Shown here: in pieces, positions 1-8,191 of the stretch
Layout: each line of letters starts with the position of its first letter
Position numbering within the stretch: position 1 is the first letter of the stretch
Origin: a virus
Strand: one strand, 5' to 3'
Virus record (IMG/VR): IMGVR_UViG_3300042888_001055
DNA length: 64,000 bases
The notes under the pieces: generated by a model
Seen by the model: the letters and a program-made list of their open reading frames with translations, nothing else
What the model was told of the DNA's origin: nothing
Database searches by the model: none
Program-made: the position numbers and the translations under genes

Positions 1-353
1 GTATTTTCACCACCTTTGCTTCTAGGGACAATGTGGTCACGACTTAACAGATGATAGTTTGGAAACTGTTCACCGCAATAAGCACATACATGTCTATCAC
101 GACCAAACAATGTTTTATTAGTTAGTGCAACACATGAATGCTTGTATGGATTGAATCCATGACCTTTAATAGCAATAATGCTACTAGCTTCTAGGTAACT
201 TAATGTACCGTCATTTTGTATACCACCACGATATTTAGCTACAATATTACCCATTGACCAAGCGATGGCATCTTTTGCTTTATAGGTAATTGCGTCATCA
301 TTTGATATCCATTGCCGGGGAACTCCCGAGATATCTAGTGCTAGAACAGCCAT
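1..353 (-). CDS. HNH endonuclease (McrA-like), 3'-truncated by window edge; not in ORF track
   Basis: Manual translation from ATG at 353: MAVLALDISGVPRQW...LFGRDRHVCAYCGEQF...LSRDHIVPRSKGGEN; RD-x3-CxYC and DHIVPxSxGG motifs; SD AAGGAG upstream. Confidence 0.9.
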   Translation of the reverse strand, partial: MAVLALDISGVPRQWISNDDAITYKAKDAIAWSMGNIVAKYRGGIQNDGTLSYLEASSIIAIKGHGFNPYKHSCVALTNKTLFGRDRHVCAYCGEQFPNYHLLSRDHIVPRSKGGEN

Positions 354-400
354 AGTGTACTCCTTTTCTGTTATTATCACTATATGTATTTAATGCCTAA

Positions 401-475
401 TGGCGGGTCCTGCAGGAATCGAACCCACATCTCCAAGTTCGAAGCATGGCATTCTATCCATTGAACTAAGGACCC
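401..475 (-). tRNA. tRNA-Arg(TCG)
   Basis: Cloverleaf, anticodon loop CTTCGAA, T-loop GGTTCGATTCC, CCA end; one U-U mismatch in anticodon stem. Confidence 0.9.
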
Positions 476-482
476 TTAATAT

Positions 483-511
483 ATCATAACATAAACTATG
501 TTTGTTGTCAA
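483..511 (-). promoter_or_regulatory. sigma70-type promoter inside tRNA array
   Basis: TTGACA (511-506), 17-nt spacer, TGn-TATGAT (488-483); predicted start right at the 5' end of tRNA-Arg(TCG). Confidence 0.75.
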
Positions 512-515
512 CTAT

Positions 516-602
516 TGGTGCCCCCACTGAGATTCGAACTCAGATTTCCTTTAAGATACTCCCTTTTGAGGAGAGTGACTTTGCCAATTTGTCTATGGGG
601 GC
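516..602 (-). tRNA. tRNA-Leu(CAA)
   Basis: Cloverleaf with long variable arm, loop CTCAAAA, CCA end. Confidence 0.92.
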
Positions 603-607
603 ATGTT

Positions 608-683
608 TGGTGCAACCTTGTGGGATCGAACCACGTTCAACGGTTCTTCAGACCGCCGCTATGACTACATCAGCTAAAGTTGC
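608..683 (-). tRNA. tRNA-Phe(GAA)
   Basis: Anticodon arm GCGGT-CTGAAGA-ACCGT, T-loop, CCA end. Confidence 0.92.
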
Positions 684-694
684 ATAAATATATA

Positions 695-883
695 ATGTCT
701 TATATAAAAAGATTTATCATTCTTTTCCCCACTCCATTGTTTATGATTATGGGGTTTTTTAATCTGTTTCACGTTAATCCACATATGTGCGGTGGACATG
801 ATGGTCAATCATTTGAAATGACTTTAATGTGGTTTGCTATGTCGATTGCACATTGTAGACCATGGCTTGATTATATAGATTAA
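695..883 (+). CDS. small hydrophobic (membrane) protein, antisense to tRNA array
   Basis: MSYIKRFIILFPTPLFMIMGFF...; two hydrophobic stretches; fills the gap between two tRNAs; ATAAATA 4 nt before ATG. Confidence 0.55.
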   Translation: MSYIKRFIILFPTPLFMIMGFFNLFHVNPHMCGGHDGQSFEMTLMWFAMSIAHCRPWLDYID

Positions 884-887
884 TATT

Positions 888-963
888 TGGGGTGAAGGAT
901 GGGACTCGAACCCACAACCAACGGAATCACAATCCGTTGCTCTACCATTGAGCTACCAACACC
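888..963 (-). tRNA. tRNA-His(GTG), copy 1
   Basis: Loop TTGTGAT, G-1/C73, CCA; two U-U mismatches in acceptor stem. Confidence 0.85.
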
Positions 964-971
964 ATAAAAAG

Positions 972-1121
972 ATGGGAGCCTAGCTATCTTATTGTTAATA
1001 AGCCTCGCTAGATTGTCTCGTATAGGCAAGTTTATACACCCATCAATCATACTATAGTGTCATCACAGTTAACCCCACTGTGATTAGATTGACAGGGACT
1101 CGAACCTATCGTCTATCCCAT
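972..1121 (-). ncRNA. candidate structured ncRNA with T-loop-like motif
   Basis: End pairing ATGGGA/TCCCAT; CCTGTCAATC/GATTGATGGG (2 G-U); ATCACAGT/ACTGTGAT; GTATA/TATAC; CTAGC/GCTAG with CTTATT/AATAAG; GGTTCGAGTCC near the 5' end; no CCA end. Confidence 0.55.
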
Positions 1122-1133
1122 AACTTTGTAAAA

Positions 1134-1679
1134 TTAATTTGTTAAATAACAGTTGAATAATTGCAATGCAGTATTCCAATCTACCCATTCATTATTAATT
1201 GTCTTTAATTTTAAATTAACACACCATCTTTCATTTATTTGATTAGTGACATTGTGTGGCACAGCACCTTGAAATAAACAGGTGCCATTAATATTTCTAG
1301 ATTCTATGATTCTTAATTTAGTATTGTTGTATTTTCTTATAGTTGTAAACGGTGTTTTTATTACCTCGCCATTATATCCATCAACAGGTTTATACCAAAA
1401 TACTTTACTATTTGTACCACCAATAACCAAATTCAAATTAGTTTGATCGTACACATCATCGTCATCAATATGTATACGTGAAGGTTCATACGTTGCGGCG
1501 TAATACAGTACAATACAATTAACTATTTTAATTTTTCCCGATGATTCAACTAAGTTGAATAATTCAGGATTTAAAATAATATGTGGATTAATTTTAATTA
1601 TCTGTTTAACACTTGTTAAATCAAATTCCGTGTTAAGAAATGGAATCGGTAAATTTAATTTTTGAAAATTTCTAGACAT
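1134..1679 (-). CDS. cupin/2OG-Fe(II) oxygenase-like protein inserted in tRNA array
   Basis: H-x-D (IHIDD), distal H (VPHNV) and R (RWCV); start reassigned to MSRNFQK, 4 nt after TATAAATA. Confidence 0.7.
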   Translation of the reverse strand: MSRNFQKLNLPIPFLNTEFDLTSVKQIIKINPHIILNPELFNLVESSGKIKIVNCIVLYYAATYEPSRIHIDDDDVYDQTNLNLVIGGTNSKVFWYKPVDGYNGEVIKTPFTTIRKYNNTKLRIIESRNINGTCLFQGAVPHNVTNQINERWCVNLKLKTINNEWVDWNTALQLFNCYLTN

Positions 1680-1736
1680 TTTGTATTTATATACAATTGT
1701 GTTCTGTGGGCAGAACTGATAGTCTATACTATAAAC

Positions 1737-1814
1737 TGGCACCCCCTCAAGGATTTGAACCTCGGAGTGTCGGAATCAAAATCCGATGCCTTAGACCAAC
1801 TTGGCGAAGGGGGT
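1737..1814 (-). tRNA. tRNA-Gln(TTG)
   Basis: TCGGA-TTTTGAT-TCCGA, T-loop, CCA. Confidence 0.92.
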
Positions 1815-1819
1815 ATAAA

Positions 1820-1896
1820 TGGTAGCTTCACTGTGACTCGAACACAGGACCCCCGCCTTATCAAGACGGTGCTCTAACCAACTGAGCTATGAAGCT
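1820..1896 (-). tRNA. tRNA-Ile(GAT)
   Basis: CCGTC-TTGATAA-GGCGG, canonical D/T arms, CCA. Confidence 0.93.
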
Positions 1897-1901
1897 GAAA
1901 C

Positions 1902-1976
1902 TGGTGGATGTAAGTAGATTTGAACTACTGACCTATTCCGTATGAAGGAATTGCACTACCGCTGTGCTATACATCC
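1902..1976 (-). tRNA. tRNA with CAT anticodon (elongator Met or Ile2)
   Basis: ATTCC-TTCATAC-GGAAT; G1-C72 paired and no triple G-C in anticodon stem, so not initiator. Confidence 0.88.
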
Positions 1977-1977
1977 A

Positions 1978-2054
1978 TGGGGTGCTTGATGGGATTCGAA
2001 CCCACGTATATCGGAATCACAATCCGAGGTCTTAACCGCTTGACGACAAGCACC
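1978..2054 (-). tRNA. tRNA-His(GTG), copy 2
   Basis: TCGGA-TTGTGAT-TCCGA, G-1/C73, fully paired acceptor, CCA. Confidence 0.92.
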
Positions 2055-2055
2055 A

Positions 2056-2145
2056 TGGTAGAAACGGTGAGATTTGAACTCACGGACCCTTTCGGACCGA
2101 CAGTTTTCAAGACTGTTGCAATAAACCAAACTCTGCCACGTTTCC
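2056..2145 (-). tRNA. tRNA-Ser(TGA)
   Basis: ACAGT-CTTGAAA-ACTGT, long variable arm, CCA. Confidence 0.92.
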
Positions 2146-2151
2146 ATAATA

Positions 2152-2227
2152 TGGTGGGACCAGGGCGGTTCGAACGCCCGACCAATGGATTAAAAGTCCA
2201 CTGCTCTACCGACTGAGCTATGGTCCC
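2152..2227 (-). tRNA. tRNA-Lys(TTT)
   Basis: GTGGA-CTTTTAA-TCCAT, CCA. Confidence 0.94.
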
Positions 2228-2233
2228 ATATAT

Positions 2234-2310
2234 TGGTGCGACCGGAAGGACTTGAACCTCCGACTCCCTATTTCGTAGACAGGTACTCTAATCCACTGAG
2301 TTACGGTCGC
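2234..2310 (-). tRNA. tRNA-Arg(ACG)
   Basis: CCTGT-CTACGAA-ATAGG, CCA; first tRNA of the array. Confidence 0.93.
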
Positions 2311-2390
2311 ATTCTAAAACACACATAGTACACCCTAGTCAACAGGGTTGCCGCACAGGCCATACTGTTCAACTATGTATGCTTTAGAAT
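2311..2390 (-). ncRNA. 19-bp stem RNA element abutting the first tRNA
   Basis: ATTCTAAAGCATACATAGT...ACTATGTGTGTTTTAGAAT; both deviations are G-U pairs only on the minus strand; inner ACCCT/AGGGT helix. Confidence 0.6.
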
Positions 2391-2535
2391 GCCCAGTATC
2401 ACTACCGGACATGATAGGGTCAATACCCTACCCAGTAGTCTTACTAACATGTTGTCTCCATGCTTTCATATATACTGTCCGCCCATTCTATACATTTAAC
2501 GCTGTATTACGGCTCTCGTTGCCTATTCACGCTAT
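2391..2535 (-). ncRNA. candidate multi-stem RNA in tRNA operon leader
   Basis: CAGTAT/ATACTG closing GCATG/CATGT and ACTACTGG/CCGGTAGT+TAGGGT/ACCCTA; upstream GGC/GCC and ATACA/TGTAT hairpins; no credible ORF. Confidence 0.4.
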
Positions 2536-2539
2536 CTAT

Positions 2540-2707
2540 TCAATCAGTATAAGTTAGTTGGTTAACTTTCTTAGTAGCCTCATGATGGACTTTAGCACGT
2601 TGAAATTTATCCTCTATCAACTGTGCTACTTGCTCCTTAGTCAAAACATGATTGCTAAACCAATCTTGTTTGTTTTCAGAAGTTTTGTATTCTATCTGTT
2701 CATCCAT
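2540..2707 (-). CDS. 55-aa hypothetical protein (below ORF-track cutoff)
   Basis: MDEQIEYKTSENKQDWFSNHVLTKEQVAQLIEDKFQRAKVHHEATKKVNQLTYTD*; GAGG upstream; protein-like charged helical composition. Confidence 0.55.
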   Translation of the reverse strand: MDEQIEYKTSENKQDWFSNHVLTKEQVAQLIEDKFQRAKVHHEATKKVNQLTYTD

Positions 2708-2728
2708 TTATTGTCAAATCCTCTCTGT

Positions 2729-2768
2729 AAAAGCAAAAACCCCTGAGACTTTTTAGTTCCCAGGGGTT
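2729..2768 (-). terminator. intrinsic terminator (attenuator) upstream of tRNA array
   Basis: AACCCCTGGGAACT-AAAA-AGTCTCAGGGGTT (about 13 bp, one bulge) then TTTGCTTTT. Confidence 0.85.
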
Positions 2769-2795
2769 AGATAAATGTGTTATGATGTTAACTTG

Positions 2796-2933
2796 TTACC
2801 TAGTCCCCGGGGTTCTCTCTTGGTTATCATTTGAACCGCGAATACTTGTTGGATATGCTGGTACAAAGGATACACTGGCTAACGTTAGCCACTGTCCGGT
2901 ATGCTTCAGCATGTTACAAGTTTTATTCATCAT
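2796..2933 (-). CDS. putative 45-aa attenuator leader peptide
   Basis: MMNKTCNMLKHTGQWLTLASVSFVPAYPTSIRGSNDNQERTPGTR*; lies between promoter and terminator; last codons plus stop form the antiterminator 5' strand. Confidence 0.65.
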   Translation of the reverse strand: MMNKTCNMLKHTGQWLTLASVSFVPAYPTSIRGSNDNQERTPGTR

Positions 2934-2988
2934 AGTCTCTTATTTAGTCCTGGGTGTAAAAATTACACCTTTTTTCAATTCATGCTGA

Positions 2989-3017
2989 AGTATAGCACAA
3001 GTAGGCATTAATGTCAA
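2989..3017 (-). promoter_or_regulatory. strong sigma70-type promoter of leader/tRNA operon
   Basis: TTGACA (3017-3012), 17-nt spacer, TGc-TATACT (2994-2989), A-tract upstream. Confidence 0.85.
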
Positions 3018-3044
3018 CACTTTTTTCATTTATTTACCCAAAAA

Positions 3045-3632
3045 TTAGTCAAACTTGTTGGTGTCAATATCTACTATAATATGAATGCGATCATCATTGC
3101 TGTTATTTTCTACTCCGTGCAGTTGTCTATTCATTAATTGGCATAGGATTCCTTTCGGCATATGTATCGGCTTATTATCAGCCGGACCTATAAACAATAC
3201 CTGACTATTAGTTGTTATCGGTACATGAAATCTGTGATATCTTTGAAAGTACAATCCAGTGTCTATATGTGGTATAACTCTACCACCCGGTAATAATTTA
3301 ACTACCATAATGCGTCCCAACTCTTTTCCATTAACTACAGAATAGCACCATTCAATCATGCTATTTATTTGAGGGTACATATATCTTACACTACTATCCT
3401 TACATTCAATAATGTCTGATACAGCTTCACGTGTTCTTGGTGTATTTTGTTCTAATTTGTGTGTCCGAAGATGTGTTGTAATAGATGTTGCAAATACCGG
3501 ATCACGTTTTCTAAAATCCGAGATTACAGTGGTAGAATCCCAATTAATATTGTCAATTTCATTTTTAGTAGAATTGAATAATTCTGTTGGCACTGATTCT
3601 ATTAAACGAACATGATTTTCTTTTATAAACAT
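3045..3632 (-). CDS. aspartyl/asparaginyl beta-hydroxylase-like 2OG-Fe(II) oxygenase
   Basis: GRIMVVKLLPGGRVIPHIDTG...RFHVPITTN...LHGVEN...RIHIIVD. Confidence 0.85.
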   Translation of the reverse strand: MFIKENHVRLIESVPTELFNSTKNEIDNINWDSTTVISDFRKRDPVFATSITTHLRTHKLEQNTPRTREAVSDIIECKDSSVRYMYPQINSMIEWCYSVVNGKELGRIMVVKLLPGGRVIPHIDTGLYFQRYHRFHVPITTNSQVLFIGPADNKPIHMPKGILCQLMNRQLHGVENNSNDDRIHIIVDIDTNKFD

Positions 3633-3639
3633 TGAGAAC

Positions 3640-3659
3640 TATTTATATTAATATAAATA
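3640..3659. promoter_or_regulatory. back-to-back T4-like late promoter motifs
   Basis: TATAAATA on minus (3647-3640) and plus (3652-3659) between divergent genes. Confidence 0.65.
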
Positions 3660-3691
3660 CTATATATATTTGTGTACAAAGGAGTTACAAA

Positions 3692-4231
3692 ATGAGCGTA
3701 ATTACATTTTTTGCGGCCGCACCAGAATCTACCGTAAGTCAATCAGTTACTGAGGTTAATTCTATAGATTGGGATGGATCACCCATCGATGGTATTGAAA
3801 TTGATAGTAATGATAACATCAAGGTTATGATGTTGTCACAACTGAACGATCTAGGTGATACTGTTGAAGAAATAAATAATACTGTAATATTTAATCAACT
3901 TACCCCTTTACTTTATCCAGGAATTTATTCTTTAATAGATTGGCTAAAGAGTACAGTCGGAGCATCCTACATTGGAAAAACAAGAATTGTGGCATTATTA
4001 CCGGGAAAAGGTATACCGGATCACATTAATAATAGTTCATATTACTCTAAGTATACCCGATATCATATTCCTCTAGTAACTCATTCTGATGTTAAAATTA
4101 TAGAAACACTCACATCTACAGAAGAAAACATGTTAGTTGGTAACGTTTATACGTTATCTAATACAATAAGCCACAGTTTTAAAAATAATTCTAATATTAC
4201 TAGGATACATCTTATAGTAGATTTGGCATGA
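3692..4231 (+). CDS. AspH-like oxygenase (H-x-N variant)
   Basis: LLPGKGIPDHINN...RYHIPLVT...SHSFKN...RIHLIVD; start reassigned after SD AAGGAG. Confidence 0.75.
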   Translation: MSVITFFAAAPESTVSQSVTEVNSIDWDGSPIDGIEIDSNDNIKVMMLSQLNDLGDTVEEINNTVIFNQLTPLLYPGIYSLIDWLKSTVGASYIGKTRIVALLPGKGIPDHINNSSYYSKYTRYHIPLVTHSDVKIIETLTSTEENMLVGNVYTLSNTISHSFKNNSNITRIHLIVDLA

Positions 4232-4755
4232 AATACAATTTTCTTTTTAAAAAAATACTAGATGTAGATGATAGTGTTTTAGATGTATTAGAGGATTATG
4301 CAATGTCAGTTGAGTATGGGGATAATCTTGGTTTTTATAAGGGTAAAGGAATCAGAACACACATGATAGAAAACGTGTTAAACGTTCAACCGGCAATAGA
4401 AGCACTTTCAAATATTGTTAACCCTAACGGTTATTTAAATTCTTATATTAATATATTGCCAGCAAATCATTATATTTTTGAACATAGTGACGTGGGTGAG
4501 GGAAAATTCTTCAGTGATAATTTAACTATACACAAAATACATATTCCATTAATAACCAATCAATCATCTGGTCATATGTGGAAATGTTTTTATGAAGAAA
4601 ATAAACAGGTTGCCGTTAATTTTGAACGCGGTGCATCATATTTATTCAACAATATTGACATACATTCAGCCGTAAATTTTTCTTCTAGTGAAGATCGATA
4701 TCATTTAATTCTGAGATATCGACAGGATTCTATTGCAGAATCTTTTTACAGTTAA
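4228..4755 (+). CDS. AspH-like 2OG-Fe(II) oxygenase
   Basis: IFEHSD...KIHIPLITN...IHSAVN...RYHLI. Confidence 0.8.
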   Translation: MKYNFLFKKILDVDDSVLDVLEDYAMSVEYGDNLGFYKGKGIRTHMIENVLNVQPAIEALSNIVNPNGYLNSYINILPANHYIFEHSDVGEGKFFSDNLTIHKIHIPLITNQSSGHMWKCFYEENKQVAVNFERGASYLFNNIDIHSAVNFSSSEDRYHLILRYRQDSIAESFYS

Positions 4756-5891
4756 TCTATCAAATTTCCCATATAATAATAACTAGAATCAATAGACGGA
4801 AATTGTCCGTTTTTCATTACTACATTTGTAGTATCTAGTTTATTTAAATAAGAACTCCAATGATATCTCCATCCCTTTTTTATTTTCATAATTTCAGGAT
4901 GTGTTTCTACTATAATATCAAATTGGCTCATATCATCTATTTCTCCTACAATAGGTTTTCTAACTTGAAATTTAGATATATCCCAGTCCGGGTATATTAT
5001 GGGTTTTATTAATTCACTATACTTATCCCATCGTTCTGTATGTCGACCAATCCATTTTGGTTTATATAATAAGTCTTGATATTGCGGATTTCTTTTAAAC
5101 CATAAAAATACTTGATATGCTCTTTCTAATGCAAGTTCAGGAAAGTCAGGAGTCCAGAAAAAATATTCAGTACCATATGGATTAGTTACAGTTGGTGGGA
5201 TAAGTACCATTGGTTTGTCAGGAAAAGTAGTGTATGCCTTATTGTCCTTAGCTAAGAGTACGGGCTTTTCTACTCCATTGATAACTCCGACCTTTTTCCC
5301 ACGTTCTATTAATTTTATTTCTATATCATTATTACTATGTTCCGGATGCTTTAGAATATATGACATAAAATACAATCCTCTATGTGATTGAAATTTGTCA
5401 TCACCGAAACTATTTGCTGTTATGCCATCAAGCCAATCGATTAATTTGATTTCTATTTCCGGATGGTATGTTGATATGTACTCAAGATCAGGTTTAATAA
5501 TATAATCCCATTCTGACAATTGATTTTTAGCTGATGTATCTATTAAATTTGGGTTATGTATTTTTTGATTAATCAAATTAAACGGTTGTTTAACCATTAT
5601 CTGATCAAGTTTGATATTATTTTGTAGAAACGCCTGTAAAATACAATGACTATCACTACCACCGCTATATTGTAAAATTAGATAATCATATGAATCTCGT
5701 AGCATCTGGGCACGTTGTTTATATAATTCTTTAAGAGCCGTTCTACCTAATAGAGATTTATCAAAGTTTCTCCAAATATTATCATAGTAATGCCATTTAA
5801 TGGGTAAACCTGTTTTAGATTTTTCTAAAAAGGCAAGCATTGAATTAGTAATTATTTTATCACCGACAGTATAATGTCCATACTTACTCAC
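4752..5891 (-). CDS. PP-loop (adenine nucleotide alpha-hydrolase) ATPase, unknown substrate
   Basis: LQYSGGSDSH motif; paralogous EYFFWTP segment shared with 11683-12600. Confidence 0.75.
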   Translation of the reverse strand: MSKYGHYTVGDKIITNSMLAFLEKSKTGLPIKWHYYDNIWRNFDKSLLGRTALKELYKQRAQMLRDSYDYLILQYSGGSDSHCILQAFLQNNIKLDQIMVKQPFNLINQKIHNPNLIDTSAKNQLSEWDYIIKPDLEYISTYHPEIEIKLIDWLDGITANSFGDDKFQSHRGLYFMSYILKHPEHSNNDIEIKLIERGKKVGVINGVEKPVLLAKDNKAYTTFPDKPMVLIPPTVTNPYGTEYFFWTPDFPELALERAYQVFLWFKRNPQYQDLLYKPKWIGRHTERWDKYSELIKPIIYPDWDISKFQVRKPIVGEIDDMSQFDIIVETHPEIMKIKKGWRYHWSSYLNKLDTTNVVMKNGQFPSIDSSYYYMGNLID

Positions 5892-6820: not shown

Positions 6821-6880
6821 CCATCTATTTATTAAAGGATTTTGTCTACTATAAATATATGTAACATTGAAGTGAGAAAT

Positions 6881-8191
6881 ATGTTTTGTAAAACTATCTG
6901 GAATGGGATTTATATTTTACCGTACGGTGATATTCGGCTGTGTTCTATTGGAAACAATTCCGATGCATCATTAGATATGAATACTGCTAGGGATGAGAAC
7001 GGTGTTGCTATGAATATTCTTACTCATAGCATCAAGGAAATTGTTAATTCTAAAAAACATCTTGAGGTAAGAAAACTAAACATAGATGATCCAACGGCGT
7101 GGAGCCAGCATTGTTCTTGCTGTGAGAATAGGGAAATGGTTACTAAAAATAATGTATTACACCCTAATTCAAGTAGAAGGTTATATTTAAAACAGGTTAT
7201 AAAATCAAACGACATAGTTACTGAATCAAACTGTACAGAAAAAGCCAGCGCAGATGGTAATATCGACTGGTATCCGAGTAGTTTAGATATACGATTTGGA
7301 AATCTATGCAATCAAAAATGCGTAATGTGCAGTCCTATATATAGTAAACTATGGTATGATGAATATACTGAATACTATAAAACCAATCTATTTGGTAGCG
7401 GTACAAATAATAAGAAAATTTCTTTAGTTAAAAATAACAACGGTCAATGGCAACAACCCAAAGAAATGGAATGGTACGAAGATCCAAGGTGGTGGCCAAA
7501 GTTTAAAGAAATGATGCCATATCTACGACACATTTATGTGACCGGGGGTGAGCCAATGATTGTACCATCGCACGATACAATGTTAGATATACTAATAGAG
7601 AATGATTTAGCAAAGAACATAGTACTTGAGTATGATACAAATCTAACTGTCATTAATACAAAATTATTCCATCGTTGGAAACATTTTAATAAGGTGTTGA
7701 TTCGTGTTAGTATGGATGCTATTAAAGAAAAATATAATTTAATTAGGTTTGGAGGTAACTGGGAAAAGTTTGTTGATAATATTGAAAAACTAAAAACATA
7801 TGAAGAAGAATCCGAAGGACGAATTAAGATACAAGCAATCACCTCTTGTTTTCAAATCAGTACAGCATTGAATATTGTAGAATCAGAAGAATGGTGTAAT
7901 ACTATGAAGTTGCCATTTCATATTAGGTTTTTAGATGGCCCTGACAAACATGCTACTATGTCACTACCCATTTCTGCAAAAGAAGAATTAATAGATTTTT
8001 ATTCAAATCATAATACAGAAAAATCAAAACTAATAGTAAATTATCTATCGGAGCACTTATATTCGACACGAGGATCAGTGGACGAGATACATTCATTTAT
8101 TAATTTCATGGATTTCCTTGACAATAGCAGATCAACTAACTGGAGAGAGACTCTTTCGGATATCCACACTTTCCTTGAAAGGCATAAATGA
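6881..8191 (+). CDS. radical SAM protein with N-terminal SPASM/twitch-like Cys cluster
   Basis: CNQKCVMC, TGGEP; N-terminal C...GDIRLC...CSCC; TATAAATA at 6850-6857; start reassigned to MFCK. Confidence 0.9.
   Translation: MFCKTIWNGIYILPYGDIRLCSIGNNSDASLDMNTARDENGVAMNILTHSIKEIVNSKKHLEVRKLNIDDPTAWSQHCSCCENREMVTKNNVLHPNSSRRLYLKQVIKSNDIVTESNCTEKASADGNIDWYPSSLDIRFGNLCNQKCVMCSPIYSKLWYDEYTEYYKTNLFGSGTNNKKISLVKNNNGQWQQPKEMEWYEDPRWWPKFKEMMPYLRHIYVTGGEPMIVPSHDTMLDILIENDLAKNIVLEYDTNLTVINTKLFHRWKHFNKVLIRVSMDAIKEKYNLIRFGGNWEKFVDNIEKLKTYEEESEGRIKIQAITSCFQISTALNIVESEEWCNTMKLPFHIRFLDGPDKHATMSLPISAKEELIDFYSNHNTEKSKLIVNYLSEHLYSTRGSVDEIHSFINFMDFLDNSRSTNWRETLSDIHTFLERHK

Follow-up and report, generated by a model that had tools for sequence, protein, structure and literature searches.

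Leader-peptide attenuators are well described in enterobacteria, where they include trpL, hisL, leuL, thrL, pheL, the ilv leaders and pheST; the terminated trp leader RNA also hides its own ribosome-binding site. Phage tRNA arrays are usually discussed as aids to codon usage or as a means of making good the host tRNAs that defence nucleases destroy. Here we describe a leader of similar anatomy, with a promoter, a 45-codon open reading frame (ORF) and two mutually exclusive hairpins, at the head of a tRNA array on the minus strand of a 64,000-nucleotide (nt) stretch of the IMG/VR virus record IMGVR_UViG_3300042888_001055, below called the window. The window is part of a 137-kb record for which CheckV estimates 40% completeness, and the source virus is therefore a giant phage. 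We give about an even chance to the reading that a ribosome-mediated transcription attenuator heads the array, with overall decoding capacity as its most likely input. The features at the core of the locus, in the direction of transcription, are:

Promoter P1, 2989..3017, minus strand: TTGACA (3017-3012), a 17-nt spacer and TATACT (2994-2989)
Leader ORF, 2796..2933, minus strand: 45 codons and TAA, with all 20 amino acids
Antiterminator hairpin, 2759..2811, minus strand: three tiers, sharing 2768-2759 with the terminator
Antiterminator outer helix, 2811-2805 with 2765-2759, minus strand: CCCGGGG with the CCCUGGG of the terminator
Antiterminator middle helix, 2802-2796 with 2774-2768, minus strand: includes the stop codon
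Antiterminator inner (apical) hairpin, 2792-2789 with 2782-2779, minus strand
Intrinsic terminator T1, 2729..2768, minus strand: stem 2768-2758 with 2748-2738, U-tract 2739-2729
tRNA array, 401..2310, minus strand: 11 tRNAs in the window by ARAGORN and Rfam, the first being Arg-ACG

A preliminary description of this DNA had placed a promoter, an ORF and a terminator here, and all are present at these positions. The pairing that it counted at 14 of 16 positions between 2811-2796 and 2774-2759 is likewise borne out, as 12 Watson-Crick and two G-U pairs with a 2x2 internal loop, and is mutually exclusive with the terminator. It had also put the tRNA array next after the terminator, which is incorrect: the first tRNA starts at 2310, 419 nt past the terminator, with a second promoter (P2), a 55-codon ORF (orf55) and a structured spacer in between.

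With trp- and his-type attenuators the locus shares a short promoter-proximal ORF (starting ~50 nt past the inferred P1 start), an intrinsic terminator and an exclusive antiterminator that would depend on the place of the ribosome, as well as a downstream gene product that would relieve the stall. Unlike those systems, the phage leader holds all 20 amino acids with no run of any single one, its stop codon lies inside the antiterminator rather than before segment 2, its ribosome-free default appears in folding models to be read-through and not superattenuation, and the genes downstream are tRNAs with a second promoter past the terminator. Attenuators in which an upstream ORF (uORF) responds to general translation stress have been described for mycobacterial whiB7 (10.1101/2023.06.02.543512), B. 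subtilis vmlR (PMC9226507), mef/mel (PMC4335068) and E. coli toiL-topAI (PMC12121999). Stalling on these uORFs, which has various causes, keeps transcription from ending early and so triggers a response to failing translation, as we propose for the phage leader, but they control bacterial resistance or stress genes and some of them use Rho. To our knowledge, none of these leaders is reported to be complete for the 20 amino acids or to lie 5´ of tRNA genes. T-box riboswitches also carry, in a 5´ leader, a terminator/antiterminator switch that reports tRNA charging, but bind uncharged tRNA directly and need no translation; a permissive Rfam search of 2311-3017 (E up to 5) gave no T-box match, nor any other, and neither a specifier loop nor a T-box bulge is evident. 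Full-text literature searches found no leader-peptide control of phage tRNA arrays.

Relatives were retrieved with two independent DNA patterns, one for the 3´ part and one for the 5´ leader, which returned 32 and 57 viral contigs. The IMG/VR family set comprises 56 loci with a complete ORF (41 unique ORF sequences), and structures were compared in 44 unique family sequences. A profile search of 1.84 billion representatives yielded a distant set of 30 clusters at 27-76% pairwise identity, and DNA was examined for five distant members (L062, L063, L064, L065 and L066). The family is large, counting more than 60 distinct sequences from uncultured, freshwater-type giant phages, and its size makes comparative tests already possible. 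Neither a blastn search with 801 nt nor a tblastn search with the leader peptide matched any GenBank phage, and the neighbouring AspH-like protein, used as a query, retrieved no related viral loci. P1, whose -10 element is extended by TG at 2997-2996 and which scored 11 of 12 in a promoter scan, has counterparts of the form TTGAC-N17-TATAnT 5´ of the leader in nearly all related loci inspected. ORF, terminator and stop-codon hairpin occur in the 56 IMG/VR loci and, together with the promoter, in the distant L062, L064, L065 and L066, and L063 keeps promoter, ORF and terminator but not the antiterminator hairpin.

The unit stands before tRNA arrays throughout the family. Every one of the 43 loci for which 669 nt or more of downstream sequence is available has a same-strand array, starting 339-1,537 nt past the stop codon; no locus has a tRNA upstream of the leader in the up to 13 kb examined; and distant members with DNA have the same placement relative to tRNAs. 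The nearest upstream genes of 52 loci, by comparison, make up 24 unrelated similarity clusters and occur in either orientation. Because the unit is always 5´ of an array, with no tRNA before it and unrelated genes upstream, it is the 5´ boundary of the tRNA module. One 524,565-bp contig (L007 and L016) bears two diverged copies of the whole head, leader, terminator, P2, orf55 and tRNAs, each 5´ of its own array. The array of the present phage extends past the start of the window and the record itself begins inside it, so the tRNA repertoire seen here is incomplete; the whole record has 19 tRNAs (ARAGORN), all on one strand, and the arrays of relatives hold 22-35.

Both competing hairpins are conserved as structures. 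T1 has nine core pairs, one of them G-U, and a 9-nt loop; across the family 98.1% of its alignment cells are paired, and the compensatory changes seen are C-G to A-U and A-U to U-A. The three-tier antiterminator forms in 44 of 44 unique sequences, at a mean of -19.1 kcal/mol compared with -16.3 kcal/mol for T1 (-20.9 and -17.5 kcal/mol, respectively, for the window in ViennaRNA), and the stop codon lies inside its middle helix in all IMG/VR family members. In an unadjusted MAFFT alignment 89.8% of antiterminator cells are paired, against 22-56% in slid controls, and two middle-helix pairs show double-sided changes (G-C/A-U and A-U/G-C exchanges). L062 has a different terminator stem with the end of the ORF changed to match, and the outer helix of L064 is CCCAGG with CCUGGG. 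The combination of short ORF, antiterminator and terminator that the preliminary description had seen in a single sequence is accordingly a property of the relatives as well, the ORF being open in 56 of 56 IMG/VR loci (44-48 codons) and both hairpins covarying.

Nascent RNAs ending before the terminator 3´ arm were folded with a 28-nt ribosome mask. The minimum free energy (MFE) structure retained the antiterminator when no ribosome was placed and when one sat at codon 11, 27, 32 or 35; of the positions modelled, only the stop codon removed the hairpin, a result about geometry, not function. These masked folds agree with the earlier proposal that a ribosome at the stop codon would mask the antiterminator. 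Across the family, the terminator 5´ arm in the ribosome-free nascent MFE pairs with the end of the ORF in 27 of 44 sequences and elsewhere in the other 17. In the full-length RNA, where the 3´ arm is present, the MFE of 38 of the 44 contains the terminator, and the start codon pairs with the 3´ untranslated region (UTR).

The leader ORF is probably translated, as judged from its open frame, its in-frame indels and the lack of conservation of the antisense frame. Its length ranges over 43-56 codons in the 56 loci and the 30 distant representatives, and insertions and deletions are multiples of three, barring a single compensated frame shift and an isolate frameshift in L048, each of them C-terminal. 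An antisense ORF of 68 codons (2782-2988, plus strand) has the same wobble positions as the sense frame. Of 41 unique relatives, 26 keep it open and 15 have it interrupted, the sense frame being always open; sense is therefore the conserved frame. Over most of the leader peptide the ratio of nonsynonymous to synonymous polymorphism (pN/pS) is 0.66-0.77, and one block departs from this:

YPTSIRG block, codons 27-33, 2835..2855, minus strand: the sole strongly constrained part of the peptide

In this block pN/pS is 0.08. The motif CCCGGGGA near the C-terminus is kept at the nucleotide level although the reading frame across it differs by clade (PGTR or RGTE), so the constraint there is on the RNA. 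An internal palindromic hairpin at 2886-2873, considered as a further element, is not conserved among relatives, and the sequence there follows the protein.

The preliminary description had called the leader pan-codon, on the grounds that it uses 36 distinct codons in 45 and all 20 amino acids. The counts are right and above chance. Among 1,202 windows of 45 codons from the long ORFs of the window, the mean is 24.5 distinct codons (sd 3.3), none reaches 36, and 0.7% have a full set of 20 amino acids; when the bases of the ORF itself are shuffled without creating stops, P = 0.026 for 36 or more codons, P = 0.03 for 20 amino acids and P = 0.003 for both. Given the peptide, however, 36 codons have P = 0.0016 under the synonymous usage of the phage but P = 0.11 under uniform synonymous choice. 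Since the codon count is ordinary under uniform usage, the maintained property is amino-acid and not codon completeness; the earlier term stands for the amino acids, which are kept complete beyond independent-site expectation, and not for the codons.

Complete sets of amino acids are in excess across the family. All 20 occur in 38 of 41 close ORFs and in 22 of 30 distant representatives. For the latter, a column shuffle of the distant alignment gives an expectation of 6.4 complete sequences (sd 2.0, maximum 14 in 5,000), and a simulation along an inferred tree, in which sites evolve independently with site-specific frequencies from a complete root, predicts 6.5-8.9 (sd ~3, maximum 18 in 400). 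When only D, E, Q and V are counted, residues that no conserved column holds in place, 26 of 30 are observed against 16.7 expected (sd 3.6, P = 0.007). His and Cys occupy different positions in different lineages, and for every amino acid the count per leader varies far less than its mean. The composition of the leader is therefore kept more than its sequence, given the weak constraint on the peptide together with the low variation of the counts. The fraction of leader codons readable by the tRNAs of the record is 56-67%, compared with 54-61% for phage genes (values for an incomplete record that carries 19 tRNAs).

Between T1 and the first tRNA lie the following features:

Promoter P2, 2689..2717, minus strand: TTGACA, a 17-nt spacer and TAGAAT, 11 nt past the U-tract, score 11 of 12
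orf55, 2540..2707, minus strand: 55 codons, with its ATG inside the P2 spacer, overlapping P2
Structured spacer RNA, 2311..2539, minus strand: 229 nt, abutting the first tRNA

P2, which is near consensus, is conserved in most lineages at ~10 nt from the end of the U-tract, and four loci without orf55 have it too. Its -10 element is held as xTA-NAA-Txx while the encoded residues vary (I/V/L, E/Q/K, Y/S/L), and for these reasons P2 is under selection of its own. L062 and L064 have no comparable promoter between T1 and the first tRNA. The proposal that the leader gates the tRNA operon is thus upheld in one part, the unit always heading a tRNA array, and fails in another, P2 being conserved between T1 and the tRNAs in most lineages; given P2, the switch adds to tRNA transcription and does not solely gate it. 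Dependence on read-through was found only for orf55, and for the tRNAs of L062 and L064. orf55 itself is present in 42 loci, always with its ATG 10 nt past the start of the -35 element, and has a pN/pS of 0.60; its product is helical and charged, of 48-55 amino acids, with the motif W..H.L[TS].EQ...LI and only sub-threshold matches in Pfam and PHROGs. The conservation of an ORF whose ATG lies inside P2 implies that read-through of T1 must occur, and from the arrangement of the sequence the P1 read-through RNA would be the only one that can encode orf55 whole.

The spacer forms multiple helices, with a long closing stem that abuts the 5´ end of the tRNA and a variable insert; 12 of its 50 RNAalifold pairs show double-sided compensatory changes, and it has no Rfam match. 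The tRNA cluster of T4 is likewise co-transcribed with stable RNAs (species 1 and 2, rnaC/rnaD), and by analogy the spacer may be a processed stable RNA, the likeness of an extra structured, ORF-free RNA with the tRNAs being one of layout. We know of no leader-peptide attenuator described for T4.

These features could be combined into the following mechanism. Host RNA polymerase would start at P1 and transcribe the 45-codon leader, whose last five codons and stop codon would make up the antiterminator 5´ strand that holds the terminator 5´ arm. A ribosome arriving at the stop codon while the polymerase is within ~50 nt would melt the ORF-end strand and let T1 form, and the released, terminated leader RNA would fold shut over its own start codon. 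With the ribosome late or absent, the antiterminator would persist and the polymerase would read on, giving the only RNA able to encode orf55 and adding to transcription of the spacer and tRNAs. Selection keeps every amino acid at least once in the leader, and the input would be a shortage of any aminoacyl-tRNA or a general failure of translation. Because the leader is kept complete for amino acids, overall decoding capacity is its most likely input, and the view of the whole leader as a gauge of that capacity draws on the maintained full set, on how weakly most residues are constrained and on the invariable placement 5´ of tRNAs. If true, this would be a new kind of feedback device, in which the logic of trp and his covers the entire aminoacyl-tRNA pool instead of a single amino acid and is turned on tRNA genes themselves, and it would be a compact natural sensor of global translation capacity, of ~290 nt.

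Several observations weigh against this interpretation. The codon diversity of the leader is no greater than uniform synonymous choice yields, and the completeness tests use short alignments with uncertain gap placement and a substitution model that is crude. At the amino-acid level the YPTSIRG block is strongly constrained, which a pure gauge would not need. As the preliminary description had cautioned, the Shine-Dalgarno (SD) sequence is weak and TTG and CGA codons are absent from the leader: no good SD lies 5-10 nt from the leader AUG, whereas ~40% of the long ORFs of this phage have one. The tRNAs have a promoter outside the control of T1 in most lineages. Finally, in the full-length RNA the terminator state is more stable by ~8.5 kcal/mol, and thermodynamic folds carry no information on kinetics.

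Conserved elements at the 5´ end of the transcript bear on how the switch could be built:

Leader motif CCAGGACUAAAU, 2942..2953, minus strand: invariant, 16-20 nt 5´ of the AUG
5´-terminal stem-loop of the leader transcript, 2952..2970, minus strand: sequence varies, pairing kept
Long-range closure, 2781..2934, minus strand: 2934-2928 and 2921-2916 with 2787-2781 and 2796-2791 of the 3´ UTR

The CCAGGACUAAAU motif nearly repeats the ORF-end strand and has complementarity to both the 3´ UTR and the terminator 5´ arm; it contains the sole AGGA and is retained in the distant L062, L063, L065 and L066. Eight of the 17 sequences in which the terminator 5´ arm pairs elsewhere than with the ORF end were inspected, and in all eight the partner is this motif. 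This long-range pairing of the motif with the terminator 5´ arm could serve the same purpose as the antiterminator; it has no covariation support, the motif being invariant and not having tracked the changed terminator of L062. As a tentative elaboration of the attenuator reading, one that we consider possible and somewhat unlikely, the leader could be a single-use decoding gauge with two redundant antiterminator strands, the CCAGGACUAAAU motif at -20 to -9 and its near-copy at the end of the ORF. An initiating ribosome would cover the 5´ motif and a terminating ribosome the ORF-end copy, so that termination would need continued initiation as well as timely elongation over codons for all 20 amino acids. 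Failure of either, for example through host anticodon nucleases or other tRNA-targeting defences, would turn on orf55 and the tRNAs, and the counter-measure would be made only under attack.

Of the readings that dispense with decoding as the signal, the one that fares best makes the unit an ordinary monocistronic early gene for a 45-residue trans-acting protein, perhaps in tRNA metabolism or host takeover, with hairpins that tune mRNA stability and limit translation, and with tRNA adjacency reflecting shared ancestry of the module. Such a gene would account for the consensus promoter and good terminator of the unit and for the separate promoter, P2, that the tRNAs have directly after it, and the conservation of YPTSIRG and of the single residues C6, H11, W15 and F23 at the amino-acid level, with synonymous variation, is what would be expected of a functional protein. 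The long-range closure, which is present in the whole-transcript MFE and in the RNAalifold consensus with every 3´-side change wobble-compatible, is predicted to hide the AUG in the terminated RNA, and hiding the AUG is a common way to limit the translation of small genes. What a small-protein gene leaves unexplained is a covarying hairpin on exactly the terminator 5´ arm and the stop codon, the retention of CCCGGGGA across the frame change, the drift of the peptide (pN/pS ~0.7) with a complete composition, and the need of orf55 for read-through; the 45-residue peptide also has no Pfam or PHROG match. We regard this explanation as doubtful.

The YPTSIRG block could act as a motif for arrest or pacing, or could belong to a functional peptide. 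A second alternative is an attenuator driven by programmed nascent-peptide arrest, as in the SecM, TnaC and Erm leaders, and not by the supply of all tRNAs. Arrest at codons 27-34 would free the ORF-end strand and so give read-through, for a duration set by a factor or small molecule. This only strongly constrained block sits 24-40 nt before the antiterminator strand, a ribosome placed at it leaves the antiterminator intact in the fold, and the block is nearly invariant in distant representatives, even those at 27-46% identity. We nevertheless judge arrest as the driver to be unlikely: it does not account for the maintained set of 20 amino acids, and no known arrest motif matches. Several synonymous sites inside the block are invariant too, and some of the constraint may be on the RNA, RNAalifold pairing codons 31-33 with the CCCGGGG strand. 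This segment '1:2' helix is short and bulged, shows almost no covariation and is not in the ribosome-free nascent MFE of the window.

A third alternative takes the terminated leader RNA of ~250 nt as the product, a stable structured small RNA, possibly with dual function, acting in trans like rnTrpL in Sinorhizobium, the terminator being constitutive. The whole leader transcript has an MFE of -72.3 kcal/mol (z = -4.58 vs shuffles), begins with a stem-loop, is closed by the 5´-3´ helix, and is conserved in its leader motif and 3´ UTR above the nucleotide level of neighbouring genes. The 5´ stem-loop takes the form of differing stems that occupy the same place across clades of relatives, and is missing in a few loci (L004/L007, L024, L034, L035 and L051). 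A frame that stays open, with indels that preserve it, throughout the 56 loci and the 30 distant representatives is hard to reconcile with an RNA product, as are the lack of conservation of the internal hairpin and the absence of an Rfam match, and the alternative pairing of the terminator arm would be purposeless. A small RNA as the whole function therefore seems quite improbable to us, although it is compatible with, not opposed to, the attenuator reading. A type I toxin-like cassette resembling hok, a small toxic peptide with an mRNA kept inactive by 5´-3´ fold-back, is very improbable: the start codon is sequestered by 3´ UTR pairing and the stem-loop at 2952-2970, read on the plus strand, is a terminator-like hairpin followed by a T-run, but the peptide has no transmembrane-length hydrophobic stretch and its C-terminus is polar, the opposite-strand hairpin is missing in several relatives, a conserved antisense promoter was not seen, and the unvarying location at the head of tRNA arrays would be unexplained.

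We also noted features around the attenuator candidate. The motif TTTGGGTAAA (~3035-3045, minus strand), 8-25 nt 5´ of the P1 -35 element, recurs in many loci with unrelated upstream genes and may be a UP-like site or one for a regulator. Immediately upstream of P1 are three AspH-like (PF05118) cupin paralogs (window 3045-4755), with a PP-loop-like protein (4752-5891) and a radical-SAM-like protein (6842-8191) near the leader; this neighbourhood is not common to the leader loci of relatives. Within the tRNA module, HNH-endonuclease-like ORFs are inserted at various places, in L013, L035 and L056 between T1 and the first tRNA, and such insertions put the first tRNA more than 1 kb past the leader in some loci. 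The array of the window holds a similar HNH-like ORF at its low end (3-380, minus strand), as well as an unmatched ORF of 202 amino acids inside the array (1134-1742).

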